A stretch of DNA of 64,000 bases from an uncultured Flavobacteriales bacterium (GTDB taxonomy: Bacteria; Pseudomonadota; Alphaproteobacteria; UBA8366; JADFVY01): NCBI GenBank assembly GCA_964347475.1, contig CAYFYY010000015.1:877-64876 (forward strand), written 5' to 3'. Positions 21,964 to 62,705 of this stretch are shown in pieces. The number at the start of each line of letters is the position of its first letter. Within the stretch, counting starts at the first letter, position 1. The notes under the pieces were generated by a model. That model searched no databases. It saw nothing but the letters and a program-made list of their open reading frames with translations, and was not told the DNA's origin. Both the position numbers and the translations under genes were made by a program.

Positions 21964-24279
21964 CTATTGCTTGGACAGGGCCTGGACGGCACGGTTCATG
22001 ACATCCCGGTGCTGCTCGTTGGTGACCCAGCCCGGCGAATTGACCTTGGCCCAGAATGCCGGGTCCGCCATGTTCTGGTGGCAGCCCATGCACAGCCCCG
22101 TGCGCTCCATCTTCTCGCGCATCTGCTGCGGCAGCGGGCCGGTCAGCGGCCAGTGCGAGCCGATGCTGACGAGCTGTTTGCCGTCGCGGGTGACGATCTG
22201 CGACAAATCGTGGTCGAGGCTCGGGATCGCCGGCGACTGCACCTGGGTCTGGCGCGGGATGGTCTGTCCCTGGGCGGTCTCGAGATCAACCACGAAACCC
22301 TTGTCGTAGCCGTTGAGGAACCGCCCGTCCTCGATGCCGTAGCCCAGCGTCTTCGGGTTGTCGTGGCAGCTCTCGCAGGTGCGGGCCTGGCGGCCGGCCG
22401 TGTGCGGCTGCACCGCGGCATGGTCGAGGCCCTTGCCCTCCGGTGTCTTCCAGGTCTCGTTATGGACCACAGTCTTGCCGTCCTTGTCGATGACCGTGGT
22501 GATGACCTGGCAGCCCGGCATCAGCGGGCTGACGCGCCCCTCGCCGTTGATGCCGAGGATCGGCGTCTCCCAGCGCAAGTAGGACCGGGTCTCCGACACC
22601 TTGCCCGGGCCGGTGAGCCCGTTGGTGCCGAGCGCGTTGTCTGCCGTCAGGCCGTCTTCGCCGCGCGAGTTGGCGTTGAGCAGCCAGTCGACGTCGGTCT
22701 TGCCCTCCGAGTAGTCGACGGTGATGTGGCAGCCATAGCATTGCGGTGCCCAGTCGGCATGGCAGGCATAGCACTCCATCGAGTCCATGTGCTGGGCGAT
22801 GCTGCCCATGGCGACACGGCTGTTGATATTCTTCCAGGCATTGTCGGCAGCCAGCTGTTTGAGCACAGGGACCTCGAATTCGAGACCGGCGGCCGAATGC
22901 AGGATCACCTTGTTGCCCCTCTTGACCACGTTGCCGAAGGGGTTTCCGCGGGCGGTCAGCAAATAGCCGTCCTCGGCCTCATACTGCGTGGCGAACGCCA
23001 TGTAGTCCGGGACGTCTTGCGCCAAGCCGCGCGGCGTTTGGGCGATGGCCTGCTGAAACTCCTCGCCGTAGCCGAGCGGCAGCTCCCACGGGTACTGGGC
23101 GACCGAGCCGTGGCAGTCGGCGCACTCGATCTCGACCTGCGCCAGCGTCGTGCCGGGCAGGTTGCCATCGCCGTGCATGTCGATCGAGGTATGGCAGTCC
23201 TGGCACAGCATGCCGCCTTCCGGGTTGCCCGGCCGGCTTTCCTGCGAATGGTGCAGGTCGTCCTTGATGTACAGGTAATTCTTGGTGTGCAGGGCCGGCT
23301 GCTTGCCGCCGCTCGAGTCGTAGGGACTGCCGTACGGGAACTCCATGATGCCCTGGTAGCTGACGCCGATCCGCTTGCCCCGGTTGTGGCAGGAATTGCA
23401 GCTCTCCGTCGGGATGCCGCTGTAGCTGACGTCGCCCACGGTGACTTGCGACTTTTGCGTCGCCTGCATGCGGTGGACCAGCAGCTTGCCCGGCAGCTCC
23501 TTGTCGATCGTCGGGTCGCCGCCCTCGTACTTGCCTTCGTTGGAGTACGGCACGTGACATGCCGAGCAGCCGGTGCCGCGGTAGTCGCCGCGCTTCTCAC
23601 GCCCGGTCACGCCGACATGGCAGCGCTGGCACTGCTGGCGCGAATAGGTGACTCCGGCCATGTTCGGGTGGTCCGGGATCAGGTTCACGTCGACCTCGGG
23701 CGGTTGTTTCATCTCTGTGGGGAACTGGTCCGGATGGGCCGCCGCCATCGCGGTCATGTAGGCCTTGTAGGCGTCGGTGCCGATCGCCGGCGTCTGGCCG
23801 TCATCGTCGGTGATGTTGTAGTTGCCCCACACCGACTTGTAGTCGTCCTGCAACCCCCACGACCAGAAATTGCCCTGCAACTTGCCGGCCTCCGTATTCA
23901 TCAGGGATTTCTGCAGCCGCTCGGCGTAGCCGTCATGACACTGCCCGCAGGTGTTCTTGGCGATCCAGACGCTGCCCGGATCGGGGTAGAACCGCTGCGG
24001 GCCACCGGCCGCCCGCAGGTCCCGGGGGCTACCGCTGTGTGCCGCCTCCGTGGTCGTCGCGGCGGGGTTGCCGCCATGGCAGACGACGCAACCGGCCGGA
24101 TCCCCAACATCGGCGCCCATCGCCTCGATGGTGTCCATCATCGGGCCGTCGCTGAACTTCTCGATGCCCTGGTGGCACGCAAGGCAACCCGATTGCTGGG
24201 CCGGCGCGCCCGTCGCTGTGAACAATGACAGCGCCACGACGACGGGAAGTATCAGGCTCGGACTGACGAGATATCGCAT
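21964..24279 (-). CDS. Periplasmic multiheme cytochrome c (12 CxxCH motifs)
   Basis: 771 aa with a signal peptide. CxxCH motifs: CLACH, CVVCH, CGQCH, CQRCH, CSACH, CNSCH, CQDCH, CADCH, CYACH, CYGCH, CESCH, CMGCH. Confidence 0.85.
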   Translation of the reverse strand: MRYLVSPSLILPVVVALSLFTATGAPAQQSGCLACHQGIEKFSDGPMMDTIEAMGADVGDPAGCVVCHGGNPAATTTEAAHSGSPRDLRAAGGPQRFYPDPGSVWIAKNTCGQCHDGYAERLQKSLMNTEAGKLQGNFWSWGLQDDYKSVWGNYNITDDDGQTPAIGTDAYKAYMTAMAAAHPDQFPTEMKQPPEVDVNLIPDHPNMAGVTYSRQQCQRCHVGVTGREKRGDYRGTGCSACHVPYSNEGKYEGGDPTIDKELPGKLLVHRMQATQKSQVTVGDVSYSGIPTESCNSCHNRGKRIGVSYQGIMEFPYGSPYDSSGGKQPALHTKNYLYIKDDLHHSQESRPGNPEGGMLCQDCHTSIDMHGDGNLPGTTLAQVEIECADCHGSVAQYPWELPLGYGEEFQQAIAQTPRGLAQDVPDYMAFATQYEAEDGYLLTARGNPFGNVVKRGNKVILHSAAGLEFEVPVLKQLAADNAWKNINSRVAMGSIAQHMDSMECYACHADWAPQCYGCHITVDYSEGKTDVDWLLNANSRGEDGLTADNALGTNGLTGPGKVSETRSYLRWETPILGINGEGRVSPLMPGCQVITTVIDKDGKTVVHNETWKTPEGKGLDHAAVQPHTAGRQARTCESCHDNPKTLGYGIEDGRFLNGYDKGFVVDLETAQGQTIPRQTQVQSPAIPSLDHDLSQIVTRDGKQLVSIGSHWPLTGPLPQQMREKMERTGLCMGCHQNMADPAFWAKVNSPGWVTNEQHRDVMNRAVQALSKQ

Positions 24280-40596: not shown

Positions 40597-41085
40597 TCAC
40601 CCGATGGGAATGCGCCGTCCGGCTGTCGGCTTGCCGGGCGCGGCCTTGGGCAGGACGATCGTCAGCGTCCCCCGGCGATAGGTGGCCTTGATCCCGGCCT
40701 CGGCGATCGCCGGTCCGATGGCGATCGCCCGCTCGAAGCGGCCGAACTCGCGCTCCCGCAACGCATGGTGCTGGTTCTTGGCCTCCGGCGGGATCTCATT
40801 GTCGCCGCAGATGCTGAGGATGCCGCCGCCGAAGGTGACGTCGATTTCGTCTGGCGCCACGCCCGGCAGCTCGACCTGGACGGTGACCGCGTCCGCGTCT
40901 TCGGCGACGTCCATCTGCGGCGACAGGTCGATGCCGGACACCGGGCGCGCCGTCGGCGAGCCGAGGCCGCGCCAGTAGTCCTCGACCGTCTCGGTCATCG
41001 CCTGGCGCAGGTCTTCCAGGGGGCGCGGCACGTGCCGCGGCGCCCATGCCCTCCAGTACCAAATCGGGGGTCCTCGATCAGCCAT
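40597..41085 (-). CDS. Small heat-shock protein (Hsp20/alpha-crystallin)
   Basis: 162 aa from the ATG at 41085. Alpha-crystallin core: DVAEDADAVTVQVELPGVAPDEIDVTF...REREFGRFERAIAI...ATYRRGTLTIVLPK. Confidence 0.8.
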   Translation of the reverse strand: MADRGPPIWYWRAWAPRHVPRPLEDLRQAMTETVEDYWRGLGSPTARPVSGIDLSPQMDVAEDADAVTVQVELPGVAPDEIDVTFGGGILSICGDNEIPPEAKNQHHALREREFGRFERAIAIGPAIAEAGIKATYRRGTLTIVLPKAAPGKPTAGRRIPIG

Positions 41086-41298
41086 GACGAACCTCGTCGA
41101 AGCCGGAGGATCAAATCGCCATATGGTACGACCGGGCCGCCTGCCGGGGCATTGACCCATGTCAACGGCCGGGCCCGCTTTGATCTGCGTCATGGGCGCG
41201 GGCCGCGCCCTGTGGTCCAATGCCGGGTCCGAAGGACTGACCCAGTCCCGATCCGTTCCCGAGGGGCGGCCACGAGCGACCACGGGGCCGAGCACGAG

Positions 41299-41544
41299 AT
41301 GGCTCACACGCACGAGCGCCTGATCGCGCAGTTCCCGCGCTACGAGCGGCAGATCCGCGAGCTCGCCGCATCGGATGCGGAATTCGACGAGCTCGCGGCC
41401 GAGTACGAGACTCTGCGCAGCGAGATCCACGACCTGGAAGCGTCCGGCGACGTCGGGCCCGATTACACGGATCTCTGCGATCGCCGCGACGATCTGCAGG
41501 AAACGCTGGTCATCATGATGCAGGAAGCCGAGAGCGCCGCCTGA
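41299..41544 (+). CDS. DUF465 (YdcH-like) small coiled-coil protein
   Basis: 81 aa. IRELAASDAEFDELAAEYETLRSEIHDLE... is the typical DUF465 pattern. Confidence 0.6.
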   Translation: MAHTHERLIAQFPRYERQIRELAASDAEFDELAAEYETLRSEIHDLEASGDVGPDYTDLCDRRDDLQETLVIMMQEAESAA

Positions 41545-42183
41545 CGCGGGGCTCTCGCGGGGATCATGGCCGGGCTGGCGGGGGCACAGGCCTGGCGGGT
41601 GATCTTTAACGCCTACCCCGGGGCCCGGCAGATAGCGCCGTTGAGCTCTGCACCGAGGCGAGACGGCGGCGCGCCAAGGCGCACGCCTTGTCGACCGCGG
41701 TGGACGGCAAACTCGCCGGCTTCGCCGATGTCGGCACCTGGGCCGAGGTGGCCGTCGAAGACGAAAGCAAGATGGTCGCGCGCGGCAAGCAAGGCAGAGC
41801 CGCAACCAACGCTACGAAGGTCGGCCCCATGACCGAGGACGCAGGACAGCGCTACCTGCGCCTGCCCATGCTGCACGCCGGTGGGTGCGCTTGGCATTCA
41901 TCGCTGGGCATTCGCCGGCTAGCAGCATGGGGTTCGCGATTGTCCGCGACCATTTGCTCGATCTGGGGGAACGGATGTTCCCTTGGCGTTGTCGCCGAAA
42001 TCCAGAAGCATTCGGCAATTTTGGGGCTCCGGGGCAGGCAGCCTGATTCGTTCGCCGCCGTTGGGCATGACAGTGGCTGGTGTACGGGCATATCACGGCC
42101 TCGCCGAATACCCGCCGGCGATCCGCGGAGAAGCGCGCCGCGAAATCCGGGATGCCCGGGCCAGGATCTACGACCATTCGCAA

Positions 42184-54603: not shown

Positions 54604-54972
54604 TCACTGCGTCGGCGGCAGCATCTGGCCCCTTGGCATCTGAATGCCGCCGCCGCCCGGCGATCCGCATGGCGTACTGGCGCTGTTGCCACCGCACGGC
54701 GCCGGTCCGGTATTCCCGGTCTGTCCGGTCATCCCGCCAGGCGTCATCATATCGGGGCGCTGCGTGCCCGGACCGATCATGCCGCCCTGCCCCATGCCCG
54801 GCATCTGGCCGGTCGCAGGTGCGGTAACCCCACCCGGCCCGGTCGCGCCACCCGAGCCGTGCCAGCTGCTGGAGGCTCCGCCCATTCCGTGCGCCGCGGC
54901 GACCGCCGTCAAGAGGGCGATGCCCGCCAAGGCGGCAACCGCTGCCGTCAGTGTTCTTTCCACTTCTCTCAT
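54604..54972 (-). CDS. Small secreted Met/Gly/Pro-rich protein (metal-binding suspected)
   Basis: ATG at 54972 behind AAGGAGAA; 122 aa. Signal peptide, then low-complexity GQMPGMGQGGMIGPG...DMMTPGGMTGQTG with two Cys. Confidence 0.5.
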   Translation of the reverse strand: MREVERTLTAAVAALAGIALLTAVAAAHGMGGASSSWHGSGGATGPGGVTAPATGQMPGMGQGGMIGPGTQRPDMMTPGGMTGQTGNTGPAPCGGNSASTPCGSPGGGGIQMPRGQMLPPTQ

Positions 54973-55187
54973 CGCAATTCTCCTTTTCGGCCATCGAGTG
55001 TGCGCGATTTTGCGGTGAAATGTGCCCGTTTTCCGTAACGCCAGTTTGTCGTCCCCGGCGCCTTTTGGTAACCCGTTGTAACGAGGGGCACCGTTGGTAC
55101 GTTCCGTTACAAATCTCCGCCCCACGCGGCTCTCTGAGGCGTTACCTTGGGAGCGGCGGGTACGATGAAAGGGAAGGAGAATCCGAG

Positions 55188-55748
55188 ATGAATTTGGCAC
55201 GTTTTACGAGTCCTGGCTTGGCGACGCTCAATGTAGGAGCCGTCGTCCTTCTTTTGGCGCTCACGGCCACGGCCGTACGTGCCGAACACGTCCCGGCAAG
55301 CGACGAAATCGAAGCGGACCAGGGCGCGCGCCTGGTGATCCCGATGATGAGCCCGGACCGGGGCAAGACGTTGTTCATCGACAAGGGCTGTGTTGCGTGC
55401 CACGCCATCAACGGCGTCGGAGGCCATGACGCACCAGCGATGGACGCCCACAGGCAGATGGGGTTGGTCAATCCATTCGACTTCGCCGCCAAGATGTGGA
55501 ACCACGCACCGGGCATGATCGCAGCACAGGAGGATGCGCTCGGCGAACAGATCTTCATCACTGGCGATGAACTCGCGGATATGATCGCGTTCCTGCATGA
55601 CGACGACGCGCAGCACGGGTTTGGCGAAGGCGATCTCACAACCGCGGCCGAGAAAATGATGCAACATGAGCACGGTGGGATGGACGCGCCGGGGGCGCAC
55701 GCCGAGGAAGTCGGACATGGCCACCATGGTGCTGACGCAGAACATTAA
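55188..55748 (+). CDS. Periplasmic mono-heme cytochrome c with His-rich C-terminal tail
   Basis: ATG at 55188 behind GGAAGGAGAA. Signal peptide, a single CVACH motif, and the tail MMQHEHGGMDAPGAHAEEVGHGHHGADAEH. Confidence 0.7.
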   Translation: MNLARFTSPGLATLNVGAVVLLLALTATAVRAEHVPASDEIEADQGARLVIPMMSPDRGKTLFIDKGCVACHAINGVGGHDAPAMDAHRQMGLVNPFDFAAKMWNHAPGMIAAQEDALGEQIFITGDELADMIAFLHDDDAQHGFGEGDLTTAAEKMMQHEHGGMDAPGAHAEEVGHGHHGADAEH

Positions 55749-56365
55749 TGCCGGATTTTGATCGGGTCGATCTGCGGCGCGGGCGGCGTGCCGCCCATAC
55801 CTGCCCGAGCAGCCCGCCGATCCGTCGGAACGAGCCCATGCGTTAGGGTTTTTCGCGGGTCTCGGCGGGGATGGAATGGACAACCCGCGATGCGGCAGAG
55901 CGCGGCGAACACCCCTGCAGCCGACGCATGGCGCCGGTCATGCGGCGCGGGCGTCGGCGGGGGTAGGGCCGGTCATCGGCAGCGCGGCATCGACGTTCTC
56001 CTGCCGGCCGCCGGCGGAGGCGTAATGGGCGCCAAGCAGTTCTTTCGGCGGCATATCGGGCCAGGCCCGCGGCTCGACCGGCCGGAACAACAGGACCGTC
56101 TTCAGATGCTCGTGCATACGGATCTTGCCGATCGCCGCAAGGCGCCGCGACACGCGCTCGGCTTCGGCTTGACCCTCCAGCGAGTGGAAACCCTATATTG
56201 ATGAGCAAGGTCGGCAACGAAGAAAGTTGCCAGGATCGGCGGACGTGCGACAACGTTGACAGCACATGTTGCCGGTCCGGGACACGTCACCGTCCCGTCC
56301 TTTGAAGGAAGGTTGCCGGCAACGCCCTGCAACGGGCCACATCGCAGATCTGAAGGCGTGATGCC

Positions 56366-56737
56366 ATGCACATCGGCGAAGCGGAGCGGCATTCCGGAGT
56401 TCCGGCCAAGACAATCCGTTATTACGAGGAGGTCGGCCTGGTCCAGCCGCACCGGCTGGCCAACCGCTATCGAAGCTTCAGCGAGAAGGACATCCACAGG
56501 CTCGGATTCCTGCACCGGGCCCGCTGCAGCGGATTCTCGCTTGGCGACTGCCGGCTGCTCCTGTCCCTTTACGAAGATCGGAACCGCACCGCCGCCGACG
56601 TGAAATCGGTCGTCCTGGAACACGTGAATCGCATCGATCGCAAGATCGACGACCTGTTAATGCTGCGGCACGCACTTGCTGTCTTGATCGATGCCCGCCA
56701 CGGCGACAATCGGCCCGATTATCCGATCCTGCTGTGA
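56366..56737 (+). CDS. MerR-family transcriptional regulator, CueR/HmrR-like but lacking the metal-binding cysteines
   Basis: N-terminal HTH MHIGEAERHSGVPAKTIRYYEEVGLV. The C-terminal loop ARHGDNRPDYPI aligns with CueR ACPGDDSADCPI, with both Cys replaced. Confidence 0.85.
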   Translation: MHIGEAERHSGVPAKTIRYYEEVGLVQPHRLANRYRSFSEKDIHRLGFLHRARCSGFSLGDCRLLLSLYEDRNRTAADVKSVVLEHVNRIDRKIDDLLMLRHALAVLIDARHGDNRPDYPILL

Positions 56738-56951
56738 CGAAACGGCAGGGGCTTCGTGAGGACGTGTCGATGGCCGAAAGTGACCGGATGCATTCTCCCG
56801 TCGGTTTTCGGCCGAGGCTGACCCGGCCATTTGACCGACCTGCGGCCGGCGACGATCTCCCGTAATGGCGGGAGCGACGTGCCGGCGTGGAGGCAGCGGC
56901 CGGACGTCCGCCCGACAACCGTGAACGATAGAGGACGCTGGAACCCGATCA

Positions 56952-58310
56952 ATGCGCATTTCATTCCTCGGCGGGGTCGGCACCGTAACGGGATCAAAGT
57001 ACCTCCTTGATACCGCGGGTCTCCGGATCCTCGTCGATTGCGGGTTGTATCAGGGCTTCAAGAACCTCCGGCTGCGCAACCGGGCGCCCCTGCCCGTCGA
57101 GCCGGCGAGCATAGACGTGGTGATCCTGACACACGCCCATATCGATCATTCGGGATACCTGCCGCTCCTGGTCCGCAACGGCTTCCATGGGCCCGTGCTG
57201 AGCACGCCGGGAACCCGGGAGCTCTGCGGCGTCCTTTTGCCCGACAGCGGGTTTCTGCAGGAAAAGGAGGCGGAGTTCGCCAATCGGCATGGCTTCTCGA
57301 AGCATCATCCGGCCTTGCCGCTCTACACCCGGCGGGATGCGGAACTTGCGCTGGAACGCATTCGGCCGGTCGAGTTCGATCGGGATCACCGGCTCGACGA
57401 CGCACTCACGGTCCGCTTCTCGCCGGCTGGACACATCCTGGGCGCGGCGCTGGTCCGCGTTACCGTCGGCGATATCAGCCTGCAGTTTTCAGGAGATCTG
57501 GGTCGACCGAACAGCCCGACGATGGTCGCCCCGGCAATCGTTCACGGCGCGGACTACCTGGTAGTCGAATCGACCTACGGCGACCGACGCCATGAGCCGC
57601 AGGACACCGAGGAACTACTGGCCGAGGTCATCCAAAGAACCGCGTCACGCGGCGGCACGGTTGTGATCCCGGCATTCGCGGTCGGGCGCACGCAGACCAT
57701 CCTCTACCACCTCGCGCGTCTGAAGCAGGCGCGACAGATCCCCGACGTCCCGGTGTATCTGGACAGCCCCATGGCCATCAACGCCAGCGAGCTGTACTGC
57801 AAGTATGTCGGCGAGCACCGGCTGACGCCGGAGGAATGCCGCGCCGCTTGCGGCGTAGCCACCTACGTGCGCACGGCGGAGGAGTCGAAGGCCCTGGATC
57901 ACGGCAATATGCCGATGGTCCTGATTGCCGCCAGCGGCATGGCAACGGGCGGACGCGTCGTGCACCATCTGAAGCGCTTTGCGCCGGATCGACGCAGCAC
58001 GATCCTGTTCGTGGGATTCCAGGCTGGCGGAACCCGCGGGGCTGCCATGGTAGCCGGCGCCGATGCGGTGAAGATCCATGGAGCCTACGTTCCGGTCAGA
58101 GCGGAGGTTCGAAACCTTCACATGCTGTCGGCACACGCGGACGTCGACGAGATCATGGGCTGGCTGGGCGGCTTCAGGCACCCTCCGAAGATGACGTTCG
58201 TCACGCACGGAGAGCCCGCCGCATCGGATGCCCTCCGCCATCGCATCGAAGAGGAACTCGGATGGGAGTGCCAGGTTCCCGGATATCGCGACCAGGCGGA
58301 CCTGAACTGA
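56952..58310 (+). CDS. MBL-fold beta-CASP family hydrolase (RNA-metabolising type)
   Basis: 452 aa with the HAHIDHSG motif, beta-CASP blocks (VVESTYGDR, IPAFAVGRTQ) and a C-terminal SAHAD motif. Confidence 0.85.
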   Translation: MRISFLGGVGTVTGSKYLLDTAGLRILVDCGLYQGFKNLRLRNRAPLPVEPASIDVVILTHAHIDHSGYLPLLVRNGFHGPVLSTPGTRELCGVLLPDSGFLQEKEAEFANRHGFSKHHPALPLYTRRDAELALERIRPVEFDRDHRLDDALTVRFSPAGHILGAALVRVTVGDISLQFSGDLGRPNSPTMVAPAIVHGADYLVVESTYGDRRHEPQDTEELLAEVIQRTASRGGTVVIPAFAVGRTQTILYHLARLKQARQIPDVPVYLDSPMAINASELYCKYVGEHRLTPEECRAACGVATYVRTAEESKALDHGNMPMVLIAASGMATGGRVVHHLKRFAPDRRSTILFVGFQAGGTRGAAMVAGADAVKIHGAYVPVRAEVRNLHMLSAHADVDEIMGWLGGFRHPPKMTFVTHGEPAASDALRHRIEEELGWECQVPGYRDQADLN

Positions 58311-58332
58311 CGTCAGGAGCGGGGACTGAAAG

Positions 58333-59853
58333 ATGCCGGCGGGAACGACTCTGAAAGCCAACGTCTTGCGGCTCAGGCGGCTTGGCATCGACACGCAGCA
58401 GGAGAACGTCGCCTATATGCGGCATGACTGTCACATCTGCCGTGCCGAGGGTTTCTTCGCACATGCGCGGATAAGGGCCGCTCACGGGTCGAAATCGATC
58501 ATCGTGACGCTGCACCATTTGCAGAACGATCTCCTGTCGGAGGGCGAGGCCAGCCTGTCGGAGGCGGCCTGGAAGCTGCTCGATGTCGAAGAGGGCGACG
58601 AGGTCAGCTTCAGCCACATGGACCCCCTCGAATCCCTCGGCTCGGTGCGGGCGAAGATCTATGGCCATCGGCTCGCCGAGCCGCAATTCGGCGAGATCAT
58701 CGACGACATTCTCGCCGGCCGCTATTCCGACATCCACATCGCAGCCTTCGTCACCGCCTGCGCGGGCGGCCGTCTGGATGGCGAAGAAATCGTCGCTCTC
58801 ACCAGGGCCATGGTCGATGCCGGCGATCGTCTGCAATGGCCTGCGACCAAGGTAGTGGACAAGCACTGCGTGGGGGGCCTTCCGGGCAACCGGACGACGC
58901 CGATCGTGGTCGCCATTGCGAGCGCCTGCGGCCTTACCATGCCCAAGACCTCTTCGCGCGCCATCACCTCTCCGGCGGGAACCGCCGATGCGATGGAGAC
59001 GCTGGCGCCGGTCGATCTCGACCTTGCGACCATGCGGAGAGTCGTCGAGCGCGAGGGCGGCTGCATCGTCTGGGGCGGCGCCGTCTGCCTCAGCCCGGCC
59101 GACGACGTGCTGATCCGGGTCGAGCGCGCCATCGACCTCGACAGCGAAGAGCAACTCGTCGCGTCCGTCCTTTCCAAGAAGGCGGCCGCCGGTTCGACCC
59201 ACCTCGTTCTCGACCTGCCGGTCGGGCCGACCGCAAAGGTTCGGAGCCTGGCCGAGGCGGATTCGGTCACCGCACATTTGCGGAGAACGACGGAGGCGCT
59301 TGGTATCGAGGTCTCGATCGTCGTGACCGACGGTTCGCAGCCGGTAGGCCGGGGAATCGGCCCCGCTCTCGAGGCGCGCGATGTGTTGGCTGTCCTGAAC
59401 GACGCACCGGACGCGCCCGAGGATTTGCGGCGACGATCCATCGCGCTCGCGGGCGCCCTCCTCGAACTCGCGGCCGCAGCTCCGGCAGGAGGCGGGCAAG
59501 AGCTTGCCACGACCGTTCTCGACGATGGCCGGGCCAGGGACAAGTTCGAGCGGATCTGCGAGGCGCAAGGGGGGATGCGCACGCCGCCCACGGCCGACCA
59601 TCGCGCGCCACTGACCTCCCCCCTGTCCGGAAGAGTCATCGCGATCGACAACCGCCGCCTCGCGCGCGTGGCAAAGCTGGCAGGGGCGCCGGATGCCAAG
59701 GCTGCCGGTCTGGCTCTCCAGGTCCGAGTCGGGGATCGTGTCGATGCCGAGCAGCCGCTGTTTACCGTGCATTCCGAAACGGCGGGCGAGCTTTCCTACG
59801 CGATGGATTACGCCCGGGCGCATATGGACATGATTTCGATCGAGGCGGCATGA
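58333..59853 (+). CDS. Thymidine phosphorylase family protein, long 'type II'/AMP-phosphorylase-like form
   Basis: 506 aa with an N-terminal extension of about 85 aa, a helical-bundle domain (IIDDILAGRYSDIHIAAFVTA), and the phosphate/ribose site VDKHCVGGLPGNRTTP...TSSRAITSPAGTAD. Confidence 0.8.
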   Translation: MPAGTTLKANVLRLRRLGIDTQQENVAYMRHDCHICRAEGFFAHARIRAAHGSKSIIVTLHHLQNDLLSEGEASLSEAAWKLLDVEEGDEVSFSHMDPLESLGSVRAKIYGHRLAEPQFGEIIDDILAGRYSDIHIAAFVTACAGGRLDGEEIVALTRAMVDAGDRLQWPATKVVDKHCVGGLPGNRTTPIVVAIASACGLTMPKTSSRAITSPAGTADAMETLAPVDLDLATMRRVVEREGGCIVWGGAVCLSPADDVLIRVERAIDLDSEEQLVASVLSKKAAAGSTHLVLDLPVGPTAKVRSLAEADSVTAHLRRTTEALGIEVSIVVTDGSQPVGRGIGPALEARDVLAVLNDAPDAPEDLRRRSIALAGALLELAAAAPAGGGQELATTVLDDGRARDKFERICEAQGGMRTPPTADHRAPLTSPLSGRVIAIDNRRLARVAKLAGAPDAKAAGLALQVRVGDRVDAEQPLFTVHSETAGELSYAMDYARAHMDMISIEAA

Positions 59854-60743
59854 CCAGACCCCTGATCTTTGCTCTCCCCGGCAACGAGACGCTGGCCGAA
59901 ACGCTTGCACGCGGCGCGGACATGGAGATCGGCGACCTAGCGGTGCACCGGTTCCCGGATGGCGAGACCCACGTTCGCCTCGATACGGCCGTCGAGGGAC
60001 GTTCCGTGGTGATCGTCTGCACACTCGATCGACCCGACGAGAAGCTGATGCCGCTGATCTTTAGCGCCGCCGCCGCTCGGGACCTTGGCGCCGCACGCAT
60101 CGGGCTGGTCGCCCCGTACCTCGCCTACATGCGCCAGGACCGGCGCTTCCAGCCCGGCGAGGCCATTACTTCTATCCATTTTGCAGGGATGCTCGGCTCC
60201 TGGATCGACTGGCTGGTGACCGTCGATCCGCATCTTCACCGGCGCCATGCGCTCTCGGAGATCTATCCGGTCCCTGCCGCGGTCGTCCATGCAGCCCAGG
60301 CAATCGCCCGTTGGATCGGGCATGAGGTGCAGAAACCTCTGCTTTTCGGACCCGATGAGGAAAGCGAACAGTGGGTCTCCGAGATCGCACGCGGCGCGAA
60401 CGCGCCGCACGTCATCTCGCAGAAGGTTCGCCATGGAGACCGGCACGTCGAAATACACATTCCGGAGATCACGCATTGGCGGGAGCATACACCGGTCCTG
60501 GTCGACGACATCATTTCGACGGGTCACACCATGATCGAAACCATCTCGCACCTGAAGAAGGCGGGGCTTGGGGCGCCCGTTTGCATCGGGGTCCACGGCG
60601 TCTTCGCCGGCACGTCCTATATTGACCTGCAGAACGCGGGGGCGCGCTCGATCGTGACTTGCAACACGATTCCGCATGTCTCCAACGCGATAGATATTTC
60701 CGGACTGCTGAGTGGTCCCGTCACCCGGCTGGCCACGTCGTAA
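59850..60743 (+). CDS. Ribose-phosphate pyrophosphokinase (Prs)-like phosphoribosyltransferase-fold protein
   Basis: ATG at 59850 overlaps the upstream stop (ATGA); 297 aa. RFPDGETHVRL N-domain and the PRPP loop VLVDDIISTGHTM. Confidence 0.8.
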   Translation: MTRPLIFALPGNETLAETLARGADMEIGDLAVHRFPDGETHVRLDTAVEGRSVVIVCTLDRPDEKLMPLIFSAAAARDLGAARIGLVAPYLAYMRQDRRFQPGEAITSIHFAGMLGSWIDWLVTVDPHLHRRHALSEIYPVPAAVVHAAQAIARWIGHEVQKPLLFGPDEESEQWVSEIARGANAPHVISQKVRHGDRHVEIHIPEITHWREHTPVLVDDIISTGHTMIETISHLKKAGLGAPVCIGVHGVFAGTSYIDLQNAGARSIVTCNTIPHVSNAIDISGLLSGPVTRLATS

Positions 60744-60831
60744 CGGCGTGGTATCGTCGTACATCGCAGCTCTATCGCCCGAAGGAGCCTGACTCCTGTT
60801 CTCGACTCGGCCGCGATATCGAGGGCGAGCC

Positions 60832-61410
60832 TTACTCCGCGTGCTCGACGCTTTCGAGAAAAGAAATCCAGTGCGCGGGAAGACCATGGGCCCGCGCACC
60901 CTCTCTGAGCAGCGAGATATAGCGCAGCGAGGGGTTTCCGTCCTTGTCCTTGCCGTCGGCGATATAGGTGACCGCGCTTACGGGGTTGCCGCCGATGTCC
61001 TCTGCGGAGAGCCAGAGTGGGCGGTAGCGCCAGCCGGGGATGCCCTCGCTCGCGTTCAGCCGGACGAGCTCGCGCCGGCGGAGCCGGTAAAGCACGCCCC
61101 ACACCTCTGCGTCCCCGTCCGGGCATATATTCGCCGGCGCCGCCCGTCCCCGGGGGCGGCCTTCGAGATTGAACCTCAGGCGGTAGCCGATGATCCGACC
61201 GGCCCGCCATTCCTCGGGCCGCATGCCGCGCCGTTCGCGGAAGGCGCTGTCATGCATGTTGGCGCCGTAGGCAAAATACCAGACCTCGTCCGCGGGATGG
61301 CCGTCGAGCGTCAGCCCCCAGGCACGATACCAGAGCCGGGCGAGCGGCCAGACCCGGAGGATCACGGGAGTCCAGGCCCGCTTCAGGCCACGCCGCGCGT
61401 TACGCCACAT
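60832..61410 (-). CDS. Gamma-glutamylcyclotransferase-like (AIG2/GGCT fold) protein
   Basis: 192 aa with the YFAYGANM signature and a downstream E (WGVLYRL...). The start overlaps the MFS stop (TGATG). Confidence 0.75.
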   Translation of the reverse strand: MWRNARRGLKRAWTPVILRVWPLARLWYRAWGLTLDGHPADEVWYFAYGANMHDSAFRERRGMRPEEWRAGRIIGYRLRFNLEGRPRGRAAPANICPDGDAEVWGVLYRLRRRELVRLNASEGIPGWRYRPLWLSAEDIGGNPVSAVTYIADGKDKDGNPSLRYISLLREGARAHGLPAHWISFLESVEHAE

Positions 61411-62705
61411 CAGCCTTTCTCCAGTCCCGACAGTCGCGCGTAGAGCGCGAGCTGCACACCCGCCGCCGCCGCCGCGACAGCGAATATGCCGGAAAGCGAC
61501 ACCGCATCGGCGATAGCTGCGCCGAGCAGCGGCAGAAGTGCGGCGGGAGAGGCGAGCGCGTTGAAGTAGGCGGAATAGGCGGGGCGCCGGTCATTCGGCG
61601 AGATTTCCATCAGATAGCCGAGATAGGCGATGGTCATGCCGTTCACCAGCGCGCCGACGGCGATGAACAGCACCGCGAAGGCGGCAAGCAAGGCCGGCGG
61701 CGTGAACCCATCCGCTCCGGCGATGACGGCGAGCGCGCCGAGCGGCGGCCCCAGCCGGAGACCGCCGACCGCCCGCAACAGGGCGAGTTTCCCGAACCGG
61801 TCGCCAATGCGGCCCCACAGCGCGTTCGACGACAGCGAGCCCGCGGTCTGGACGCCCAGCAGGATGCCGACCGCCGCCACGCCAAGCCCGGTGTCGGCCG
61901 CGGCGACGATATAGAACGGCAGGGCCATGAGCGTCGCCCCGCCCAGCCACTGTGTATACAGAAACAGCCGAAACCGCGCGTCCGATCGCAGCACATCCAG
62001 GCCGCCCCTGACGAACTGCCCGAAATCCCCTGTGCTCGTGTCCTTTGTGGGCGGGGTCGGCGGCTCGCCCGCGGAAACGAAGCTGAGGGAGGAGACGAAC
62101 ATCAGCACCGCCGCCATTGCGAAGATCAGCGCGTAGGCCGTCAGCAATGTCTGGGTTGCGAGCAGCCTGTGTATGATGGCGGCGACCCCGAGGGCCAGCA
62201 CCCCGCCGCCGAAGAAGCGCCAGGCCAGCATTCGGCTTCGCGTTCCCGATGGGATCGAGCGGCCGACGATGTCGTTGTACGGTACCGCGACGATCCCGCT
62301 GATGAAGGCGTACAGCGTCCACAGCGCGAGGAACCCGCCCGCGACCCAGCCGCCCACGGACTCGCCGGCGGCCGCCAGTAGCAGCGCAATGAGGGCAAGG
62401 CAGCTCGCCCGGCCGAAGGCGCCGGCGACATAGAACGGCATGCGGCGTTCGGCGCGCTGCGCGAGGAAGCCGACGACCAGCTGCGGCAGCAGCCAGCCGA
62501 GACGCAGAACCGCGCTCGCCGCGCCCACTGCGTAGACGTTGCCGGTCAGGTAATAGACGAGGCTGGCGACGATCGTGGCCGAATCGACCGCCGAGGATCC
62601 GGCCTGGAACGCGGCGCCGGCGGCGGTGATTTTCCAGAATACGGATCCGCCCTCCTTTTCTTCGGGCTTCCGCGCGGGCCCCAGAAAGGCGTCAGGGGGT
62701 GGCAT
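61410..62705 (-). CDS. MFS transporter
   Basis: 431 aa with about 12 hydrophobic segments and an MFS-like loop GFLAQRAERRMP between TM2 and TM3. Confidence 0.75.
   Translation of the reverse strand: MPPPDAFLGPARKPEEKEGGSVFWKITAAGAAFQAGSSAVDSATIVASLVYYLTGNVYAVGAASAVLRLGWLLPQLVVGFLAQRAERRMPFYVAGAFGRASCLALIALLLAAAGESVGGWVAGGFLALWTLYAFISGIVAVPYNDIVGRSIPSGTRSRMLAWRFFGGGVLALGVAAIIHRLLATQTLLTAYALIFAMAAVLMFVSSLSFVSAGEPPTPPTKDTSTGDFGQFVRGGLDVLRSDARFRLFLYTQWLGGATLMALPFYIVAAADTGLGVAAVGILLGVQTAGSLSSNALWGRIGDRFGKLALLRAVGGLRLGPPLGALAVIAGADGFTPPALLAAFAVLFIAVGALVNGMTIAYLGYLMEISPNDRRPAYSAYFNALASPAALLPLLGAAIADAVSLSGIFAVAAAAAGVQLALYARLSGLEKG

Follow-up and report, generated by a model that had tools for sequence, protein, structure and literature searches.

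A mobile bacterial operon of a beta-CASP ribonuclease, an AMP-phosphorylase-type enzyme and a class III-like ribose-phosphate diphosphokinase, with a possible role in nucleotide turnover at respiratory failure

The 64,000-nt stretch of contig CAYFYY010000015.1 (assembly GCA_964347475.1) analyzed here, henceforth the window, carries at 56952-60743 of its + strand three genes, which encode a beta-CASP ribonuclease (RNase), an enzyme of the AMP-phosphorylase type and a protein resembling ribose-phosphate diphosphokinase (Prs). The trio is a real, widespread and mobile bacterial operon, whose conserved core consists of the phosphorylase and the Prs, with the RNase as a frequent third member that is also found alone. 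As to function, we would give roughly an even chance to its being an accessory, mobile stress-island module that turns over RNA-derived nucleotides when respiration fails, at low oxygen and possibly under copper or metal stress. Annotation of the genes is routine, and regulation by low oxygen has already been published for relatives; what appears to be new is a bacterial counterpart of the archaeal AMP/pentose bisphosphate theme, assembled with different partners.

How strict aerobes survive without oxygen is an open question for organisms as diverse as nodule rhizobia, Burkholderia of the cystic-fibrosis lung, Legionella and soil sphingomonads, and low-oxygen regulons are rich in unassigned genes. 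The trio, oxygen-regulated in relatives of the window's operon, brings together an RNase and two nucleotide enzymes of archaeal type; in a fifth of the loci studied, phosphoketolase and acetate kinase are tied to it. If the ribose of RNA indeed served to make ATP or to maintain nucleotides and NAD, the operon would constitute a bacterial counterpart of the AMP/pentose bisphosphate pathway and offer a concrete energy source for anoxic persistence. Microoxia expression data exist for Bradyrhizobium diazoefficiens and Burkholderia, both of them cultured and genetically manipulated.

A conserved and mobile operon

The three genes stand in tight succession (Table 1). The RNase and phosphorylase genes are separated by 22 bp (58311-58332), and the ATG of the Prs gene at 59850 overlaps the phosphorylase TGA at 59851-59853 (gcATGAcc), which couples the two genes translationally. 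Both features had been pointed out in a preliminary description of this DNA and are borne out by the sequence, as are the motifs it quoted and their positions (HAHIDHSG, FPDGE and VDDIISTGHT); its family calls, namely a beta-CASP RNase, a long-form AMP-phosphorylase-like protein and a non-housekeeping Prs, prove right against Pfam, NCBIfam and the Protein Data Bank (PDB). NCBIfam and PDB E-values of the trio span 1e-34 to 1e-204, far beyond chance, and all three proteins look catalytically competent from their sequences. As that description had also stated, neither deoBCD nor nucleotide-biosynthesis neighbors are found nearby in the open reading frames (ORFs) and profile scans. No standard promoter (16-18-nt spacer) was reported in a scan of 55700-61500, and a terminator scan found none after the Prs gene. 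We treat the three genes as one operon, in which the CueR-like gene upstream is possibly included.

The distribution of the operon was followed in a scan that took one genome per GTDB species and in which at least 589 relatives of the phosphorylase were confirmed among 600 candidate stretches. The analysis continued with the best 80 loci, which span Alpha-, Beta- and Gammaproteobacteria, Acidobacteria, Planctomycetota, Verrucomicrobia and Legionella. Sixty-nine of them have room on both sides of the gene, and a tblastn census with the window proteins places the trio within 10 kb in 42 of these 69, strictly adjacent in 33 of the 42 and usually in the order RNase-phosphorylase-Prs. The other loci hold partial sets, with phosphorylase and Prs only (14), phosphorylase and RNase only (3) or neither partner (10), and the Prs gene adjoins the phosphorylase gene in 53 of the 76 loci that have downstream room. 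The closest relative among the best 80 loci, a metagenome-assembled genome of the Kiloniellales (L001; 92/83/80% identity), has in common with the window the downstream genes and, at its positions 1-45, the end of a merR-like gene that precedes the RNase gene. Homologues also reside on plasmids, many of them conjugative: the phosphorylase on 126, the Prs on 92 and the RNase on 206. The co-occurrence of the three families, on which the functional proposal in the preliminary description had depended, is therefore real and marks a conserved functional unit.

Metagenome catalogues further contain many phosphorylase-Prs "fusions" of about 800 aa and one triple fusion of 1193 aa. The triple RNase-phosphorylase-Prs fusion (P0305; L086, 8001-11582) was rejected, as the genes on its long-read contig (1.64x) are fragmented, and so was a cluster of 802-aa "fusions" (P0274), whose members are mostly separate proteins of 508 aa and 294 aa. 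These fusions are probably frameshift read-throughs of overlapping genes, a caution for Rosetta-stone inference in general. The only credible fusion is the singleton P0127 from a short-read contig, in which a full Prs is followed by a phosphorylase lacking its N-terminal domain; the evidence it provides is weak.

An enzyme of the AMP-phosphorylase type

Among hidden Markov models (HMMs), the phosphorylase passes the cut-offs of NF003338 (678.6 bits; cut-off 434) and of TIGR02645, the "putative thymidine phosphorylase" model (600.5 bits; cut-off 434.6). Models of the classical thymidine phosphorylase (TP) and pyrimidine-nucleoside phosphorylase (PyNP) align only from about residue 105, so the protein has an extra N-terminal domain. 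Its closest solved relative is the AMP phosphorylase (AMPpase) of T. kodakarensis (4GA5/4GA6, E = 3.7e-100). An AlphaFold2 model (predicted local distance difference test score 90.8) superposes on full-length 4GA5 over 500 columns, N-terminal domain included, with template-modeling (TM) scores of 0.86/0.88, whereas only about 430 columns align with TP and PyNP, at TM scores of 0.66-0.73. The archaeal enzyme (TK0353/DeoA, PDB 4GA4-4GA6), 38-42% identical to the window protein, has the same three-domain core and the same N-terminal domain. A residue-level comparison extends this likeness to the active site, where the window protein carries the AMPpase-type motifs GGLPGNRT and PKTSSRAITSPAGTAD: the two enzymes have in common the insertion GG(V/L)PGN(K/R)T and PKTSSRAITSxAGTAD, unlike the nucleoside-specific enzymes, PyNP and human TP showing GGV-GD.. 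and SGRGLGHTGGT at these loop positions.

The likeness does not extend to the partners. The archaeal enzyme belongs to the AMP/pentose bisphosphate pathway and works with ribose-1,5-bisphosphate (R15P) isomerase and type III RuBisCO, whereas the bacterial protein of the window is paired with a Prs and a beta-CASP RNase. An exact-sequence look-up of the window phosphorylase returned no record.

The bacterial AMPpase-like family is also set apart by cysteines. Besides a phosphate-loop cysteine, to which we return below, C33, C36, C143 and C409 are invariant in the family and not found in the T. kodakarensis enzyme. The window protein has cysteines at positions 33, 36, 143, 179, 244 and 409, five of which are invariant or nearly so in the bacterial family and absent from the T. 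kodakarensis AMPpase in the comparison, and the set includes a CxxC in the N-terminal domain. These family cysteines may act as a redox or metal switch.

The Prs-like partner

The Prs scores 419.7 bits against NF005537/PRK07199 (cut-off 322) and stays under the cut-off of all housekeeping Prs models that it matched; its Pfam domains are Pribosyltran_N and Pribosyltran. The closest PDB relatives are 1U9Y (5.3e-34) and 4TWB (7.4e-33), which we take to be class III enzymes, from M. jannaschii and S. solfataricus, respectively, while class I enzymes match at 1e-24 or weaker. One of the latter, 6NFE, presumably the class I Prs of L. pneumophila, is a distinct protein and matches far more weakly than the archaeal enzymes. 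Class III synthases of phosphoribosyl pyrophosphate (PRPP) are devoid of allosteric control, and in its sequence the window Prs stands nearer to these non-allosteric archaeal enzymes than to those of class I.

An alignment of 46 family members shows that the catalytic motifs are kept: FPDGE, RQDRRF, DPH, the K-x-R flexible loop and the ribose-5-phosphate (R5P) loop DDIISTGHT. With the class III PRPP synthases (1U9Y, 4TWB) the window Prs has in common its length class (about 290 aa) and the motifs FPDxE, RQD(K/R)(K/R)F and PH, together with the K-x-R loop and the DDIISTG-T loop. It nonetheless belongs to an NCBIfam subfamily of its own, distinguished from class III by the family-specific motifs DPHLHR, GPDxESxQWV and K-x-R-x-GDR, and PRK07199 members have a basic residue in the 5-phosphate loop, STG(R/H)T, at a position that is Gly in class I and class III enzymes; the residue is Arg in most members and His in the window protein.

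In contrast to the class III PRPP synthases, the window-type Prs is accessory, plasmid-borne and almost always found beside the phosphorylase. Because its homologues are carried by plasmids, one of them a Legionella pneumophila plasmid, the enzyme is an accessory one and not the sole prs, in agreement with its initial description as a non-housekeeping protein. Homologues with 53-55% identity sit on plasmids of the chlamydia-related Criblamydia sequanensis (H95) and of Pontibacter actiniarum (H102, Bacteroidota), and the horizontal spread of the gene is therefore very wide.

The ribonuclease and the question of defense

Pfam matches of the RNase comprise Lactamase_B/Lactamase_B_2, Beta-Casp (1.9e-35, 122.5 bits) and RMMBL (4.3e-18, 65.5 bits). 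The metallo-beta-lactamase (MBL) motifs 1-4, the beta-CASP motifs A-C and the RMMBL domain are all present, and the motifs THAHIDHSG, HAHIDH, PAGH, SGDLG, ESTYGD, SAHAD and THGE can be read in the sequence. The closest solved relative is TTHA0252 of Thermus thermophilus (PDB 2DKF, E = 2.3e-76 over residues 1-422), like the window RNase a minimal beta-CASP enzyme that has kept the metal and beta-CASP motifs and is free of KH or other extra domains (2DKF, 3IEK-3IEM); its genomic setting differs. The next PDB relatives are type VII Cas14 and then archaeal and eukaryotic nucleases of the CPSF73 type.

The Cas14 match bears on an alternative function, raised in the preliminary description, in which the trio would be an anti-phage or other conflict system, acting on infection by nucleotide depletion or by breakdown of nucleic acid. 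Some defense systems do use nucleotide-pool enzymes, the trio is mobile on plasmids, and the top NCBIfam match of the RNase is indeed the type VII CRISPR nuclease Cas14 (NF045584, 372.5 bits), with a corresponding structural match (PDB 8YHD, E = 1.8e-65). However, the score is less than half of the cut-off of 800, the match (profile positions 1-425 of 612) is confined to the beta-CASP/MBL core that the two proteins have in common, and the window RNase has no equivalent of the C-terminal part of Cas14, about 190 aa long; a Cas14 identity was accordingly rejected. Neither a CRISPR array nor other cas genes were seen near the trio in the ORF listing, no dedicated array search having been made, and cas neighbors are found neither among the window ORFs nor among the recurrent neighbor clusters of related loci. 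PADLOC gave no significant match for any of the three proteins, its sole match being Avs1a (E = 4.5e-4) over 64 residues of a generic MBL motif of the RNase, with none for the phosphorylase or the Prs. Furthermore, defense genes are missing from the recurrent neighbors in the 80 loci, the trio is practically absent from phage records, and its relatives are oxygen-regulated. We consequently consider a role in defense, or in nucleotide depletion during infection, very improbable.

Low-oxygen regulation in relatives

A view of the trio as lacking any known context does not hold. In B. diazoefficiens, the genes bll3117-bll3116-bll3115, annotated as a thymidine phosphorylase family protein, a Prs and an MBL hydrolase, form a predicted operon with a FixK2 box at -74, and transcripts of bll3117 and bll3115 are 6.6-fold and 30.6-fold down, respectively, in a fixK2 mutant (PMC9104804). 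The same FixK2 regulon table lists the phosphoketolase-acetate kinase operon bll2518-bll2517 (PMC9104804), and all three products of the trio are listed as microoxia-induced at both the protein and the transcript level (PMC6515984). The operon comprises the same three annotated gene families as that of the window in a different order, phosphorylase-Prs-RNase, and the match is drawn from the names in the annotation and from the related B. denitrificans locus L014 rather than from a direct sequence comparison.

An orthologue of the RNase, moreover, belongs to the lxa locus of Burkholderia. In B. cenocepacia, this locus is activated by low oxygen and needed for anoxic persistence; its BCAM0300, a "metal-dependent RNase", is 30-fold up and neighbors a ribokinase-type kinase, acetate kinase, universal stress proteins (USPs) and a cation ATPase (PMC3721108). 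In the lxa-type locus of another Burkholderia, a homologue of the window RNase (57% identity) holds the position of BCAM0300, flanked on one side by a block of alcohol dehydrogenase (ADH), USP, AckA and Fnr genes and on the other by a block with genes for the BCAM0308-family protein and class II ribonucleotide reductase. This lxa-type stretch (29 kb, L084) includes the RNase, whereas the phosphorylase and the Prs are absent from it. In 5 of the 80 loci, against 1.5 expected, the first gene is preceded at 60-135 bp by an exact FNR-type box; low-oxygen control can therefore not be generalized by motif.

Genomic neighborhoods and metal stress

For a census of neighbors, the ORFs within 9 kb of the phosphorylase gene were clustered over the 80 loci and the clusters annotated with Pfam. 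P1B-type ATPases recur in 38 loci, an ICMT-like membrane methyltransferase in 21, acetate kinase in 12, phosphoketolase in 9, USPs in 6, FixL-like PAS kinases in 5 and type II glyceraldehyde-3-phosphate dehydrogenase (GAPDH) in 4; MerR genes lie near the trio in 10. Acetate kinase (AckA) and/or phosphoketolase (Xfp) are present in 15 loci, in several of them within the array itself: both genes are placed between those of the phosphorylase and the Prs in L019, L037 and L043, the order is AckA-Xfp-RNase-phosphorylase-Prs in L027 and L077 and Prs-Xfp-RNase-phosphorylase in L068 and L073, and L047 has type II GAPDH in addition. A Sphingobium plasmid carries what resembles a hypoxia island, AckA-Pta-ADH-USP-USP-ADH-phosphorylase-Prs-USP-catalase. 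Arrays of a metal-island kind are found on an Agrobacterium plasmid (Crp/Fnr ... HMA-ATPase-Prs-Xfp-RNase-phosphorylase-cytochrome b, amid Cu/Hg genes) and on an Acidovorax plasmid (ppk2-ATPase-...-RNase-phosphorylase-Prs-...-GAPDH II).

The P1B ATPases beside the trio (n = 44; e.g., L003 2067-4457, L017, L040, L044, L059, L061, L067, L080) are heterogeneous, with the usual transmembrane motif CPC in 16, CPD in 8 and the search pattern unmatched in 20. Those of the CPD group are devoid of N-terminal CxxC motifs, and their metal specificity may be unusual.

It is conceivable that the trio is instead a metal, in particular copper, stress module under MerR-type regulators, which would clear metal-damaged RNA or provide ATP or nucleotides for efflux by P-type ATPases, low-oxygen control being secondary. 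The ATPase is the commonest neighbor, often directly upstream and co-directional (L008, L013, L035, L046, L061), and CusAB, multicopper oxidase and cupredoxin genes recur as well, as in the Legionella loci L057 and L062, which read ATPase-CusBA-RNase-phosphorylase-Prs-ATPase-multicopper oxidase. In the window itself, the operon is preceded by a CueR-like gene and, farther upstream, by a Gly/Met-rich ORF and the gene of a cytochrome c whose tail is rich in His and Met. The CueR-like protein, however, matches Pfam MerR_1 and MerR-DNA-bind and reaches only 127.5 bits against TIGR02044 CueR (cut-off 147.4), and its two Cu(I)-binding Cys positions presumably read R/H and Y by alignment with E. coli CueR. 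Given these substitutions and the low score, its signal is probably not Cu(I); the protein is a possible local regulator of the operon. Against the metal explanation, too, the sole expression data speak for oxygen and FixK2 control, many loci have a USP/ADH/AckA/Fnr context free of metal genes, and co-location on mobile islands may reflect co-selection only. We regard a primary role in metal stress as unlikely.

Proposed function

The reading that we prefer, turnover of RNA-derived nucleotides at respiratory failure, would proceed in three steps. First, the TTHA0252-type RNase would, by homology, cut RNA to nucleoside 5'-monophosphates (NMPs). Second, the AMP-phosphorylase-type enzyme would convert NMP and inorganic phosphate (Pi) to base and R15P, as suggested by the roughly 40% identity, the architecture and the active-site motifs that it has in common with T. 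kodakarensis AMPpase. Third, the class III-type Prs, presumably free of the ADP-inhibited allosteric control of class I, would interconvert ribose phosphates and PRPP. The route from nuclease to NMP to base and R15P had been proposed in the preliminary description and, on homology, remains the most economical account of the first two steps. The Prs would be an obligate partner of the phosphorylase, with the outcome that bases are re-salvaged into nucleotides and NAD for the dormant cell or that ribose phosphate is drained to catabolism; in many genomes, phosphoketolase, acetate kinase and type II GAPDH from the same array could then take pentose phosphate to substrate-level ATP. The tight and often translationally coupled pairing of phosphorylase and Prs argues for a common metabolite or a complex. 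A functional analogue would be AMP nucleosidase (Amn) of E. coli, which removes AMP at falling energy charge to give adenine and ribose phosphate; Amn differs in its unrelated fold, in being hydrolytic rather than phosphorolytic and in having neither a Prs nor an RNase partner.

Several observations weigh against this reading, the first of them enzymatic. The phosphorylase misses the cut-off of the AMP_phos equivalog model TIGR03327 (473.8 bits; cut-off 535), so that the HMM assignment suggested in advance comes out mixed, TIGR02645 being passed and AMP_phos missed. In the bacterial family, a near-invariant Cys (KHC) replaces the phosphate-loop Ser (KHS) of TP and AMPpase, and no assays of enzymes from this clade were found in the searched literature. 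The canonical Prs, moreover, is no obvious partner of an R15P-producing enzyme, as its known reaction, R5P + ATP = PRPP + AMP, does not consume R15P. Nor are R15P isomerase and RuBisCO recurrent among the neighbor families of the 80 loci, as judged by cluster size and top-cluster annotation (PhnN was not looked for), which leaves the route from R15P to pentose phosphate or PRPP unexplained. The linkage to phosphoketolase and acetate kinase is limited to the 15 loci mentioned above, and the commonest neighbor, a metal ATPase, is not explained by fermentation of ribose. In the window, finally, there is no convincing FNR/FixK box (TTGA-N6-TCAA) before the operon, the sole match, TGGAACCCGATCAA, having one mismatch and overlapping the start codon, which leaves FNR/FixK control no usable box; homologues of the recurrent ATPase, Xfp, AckA and USP clusters are likewise missing from all 64 kb. 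Low-oxygen control of the window operon is therefore extrapolated from its relatives.

An anabolic or salvage function reverses the direction of the pathway. The phosphorylase-Prs pair would then be a unit of PRPP supply and nucleotide resynthesis that keeps up ATP and NAD pools in dormancy: the non-allosteric Prs would make PRPP when high ADP shuts down the class I Prs, the phosphorylase would run toward synthesis in a TrpD-like manner (base + R15P or PRPP to NMP), and the RNase would only supply bases or NMPs. In its favor, the Prs has kept the full set of catalytic motifs expected of a genuine PRPP synthase and is similar to archaeal enzymes of class III, the phosphorylase has its fold in common with the PRPP-using TrpD, the pair forms the conserved core with or without the RNase, and in the singleton P0127 a full Prs takes the place of the phosphorylase N-terminal domain. 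Yet in its active-site motifs the phosphorylase follows the Pi-using AMPpase and not TrpD, the placement of phosphoketolase and acetate kinase genes within the array speaks for catabolism, and phosphoribosyltransferase or NAD-salvage genes do not recur near the phosphorylase gene in the 80 loci. On balance, we would hold this alternative only tentatively, as a minority view that is rather improbable.

A third possibility is that the phosphorylase and the Prs associate physically and save the energy held in the N-glycosidic bond of RNA-derived NMPs, in a kind of "RNA fermentation" by which obligate aerobes would draw ATP from their ribosomes during anoxia or respiratory poisoning. The phosphorylase would convert NMP and Pi (or pyrophosphate) to base and R15P (or PRPP), whereupon the Prs-type enzyme would transfer the phosphoryl or diphosphoryl group to AMP or ADP, yielding R5P and ADP or ATP; R5P would then pass through phosphoketolase, acetate kinase and GAPDH, and the redox or metal state might control the pathway through the family-specific cysteines of the phosphorylase. 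We consider this variant doubtful. Among the three, catabolic or maintenance turnover ranks best, followed by anabolic resynthesis of PRPP and nucleotides and then by the energy-conserving variant. No literature was found, in what was searched, on the function of the trio, on a bacterial AMPpase-type enzyme in connection with a Prs or with hypoxia, or on either enzyme in connection with phosphoketolase.

Surroundings of the operon in the window

The features with coordinates are collected in Table 1. Elsewhere, the window does have FNR/FixK boxes: they precede an Hsp20/alpha-crystallin gene whose HSP20 domain takes up the C-terminal 100 aa of its ORF. Alpha-crystallins are typical of hypoxia and dormancy regulons, which makes an FNR-type low-oxygen regulon probable in this organism.

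Table 1. The operon and other features of the window, in coordinates of the 64,000-nt stretch
Feature	Position	Strand	Size and remarks
Beta-CASP metallo-beta-lactamase-fold ribonuclease	56952..58310	+	452 aa; TTHA0252 type, without KH domains
AMP-phosphorylase-type nucleoside phosphorylase II family member	58333..59853	+	506 aa; annotated "thymidine phosphorylase family protein"
Class III-like ribose-phosphate diphosphokinase	59850..60743	+	297 aa; PRK07199 subfamily
CueR-like MerR-family regulator	56366..56737	+	214 bp upstream of the RNase gene, co-directional
Candidate MerR-type promoter	56170..56201	+	TTGACC, 19-bp spacer with imperfect dyad, TATATT; read by eye upstream of the merR-like gene; low confidence
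Small gene upstream, divergent from the next	54604-55200	-	
Small gene upstream, divergent from the preceding	55185-55748	+	
FNR/FixK boxes	41152-41165 and 41180-41193		Exact consensus TTGACCCATGTCAA and near-consensus TTGATCTGCGTCAT
ORF with HSP20 domain	40597-41805	-	
Multiheme cytochrome	21964-24279	-	771 aa

Of the two divergent small genes upstream of the operon, one encodes a secreted Gly/Met-rich protein with no family match and the other a cytochrome c (CVACH) whose His/Met-rich tail is C-terminal; the two are reminiscent of periplasmic copper-handling proteins. Farther away, the multiheme cytochrome matches MtrC/MtrF domains II/IV and cytochrome c7/c3 models, with a sub-threshold match to the magnetochrome domain.

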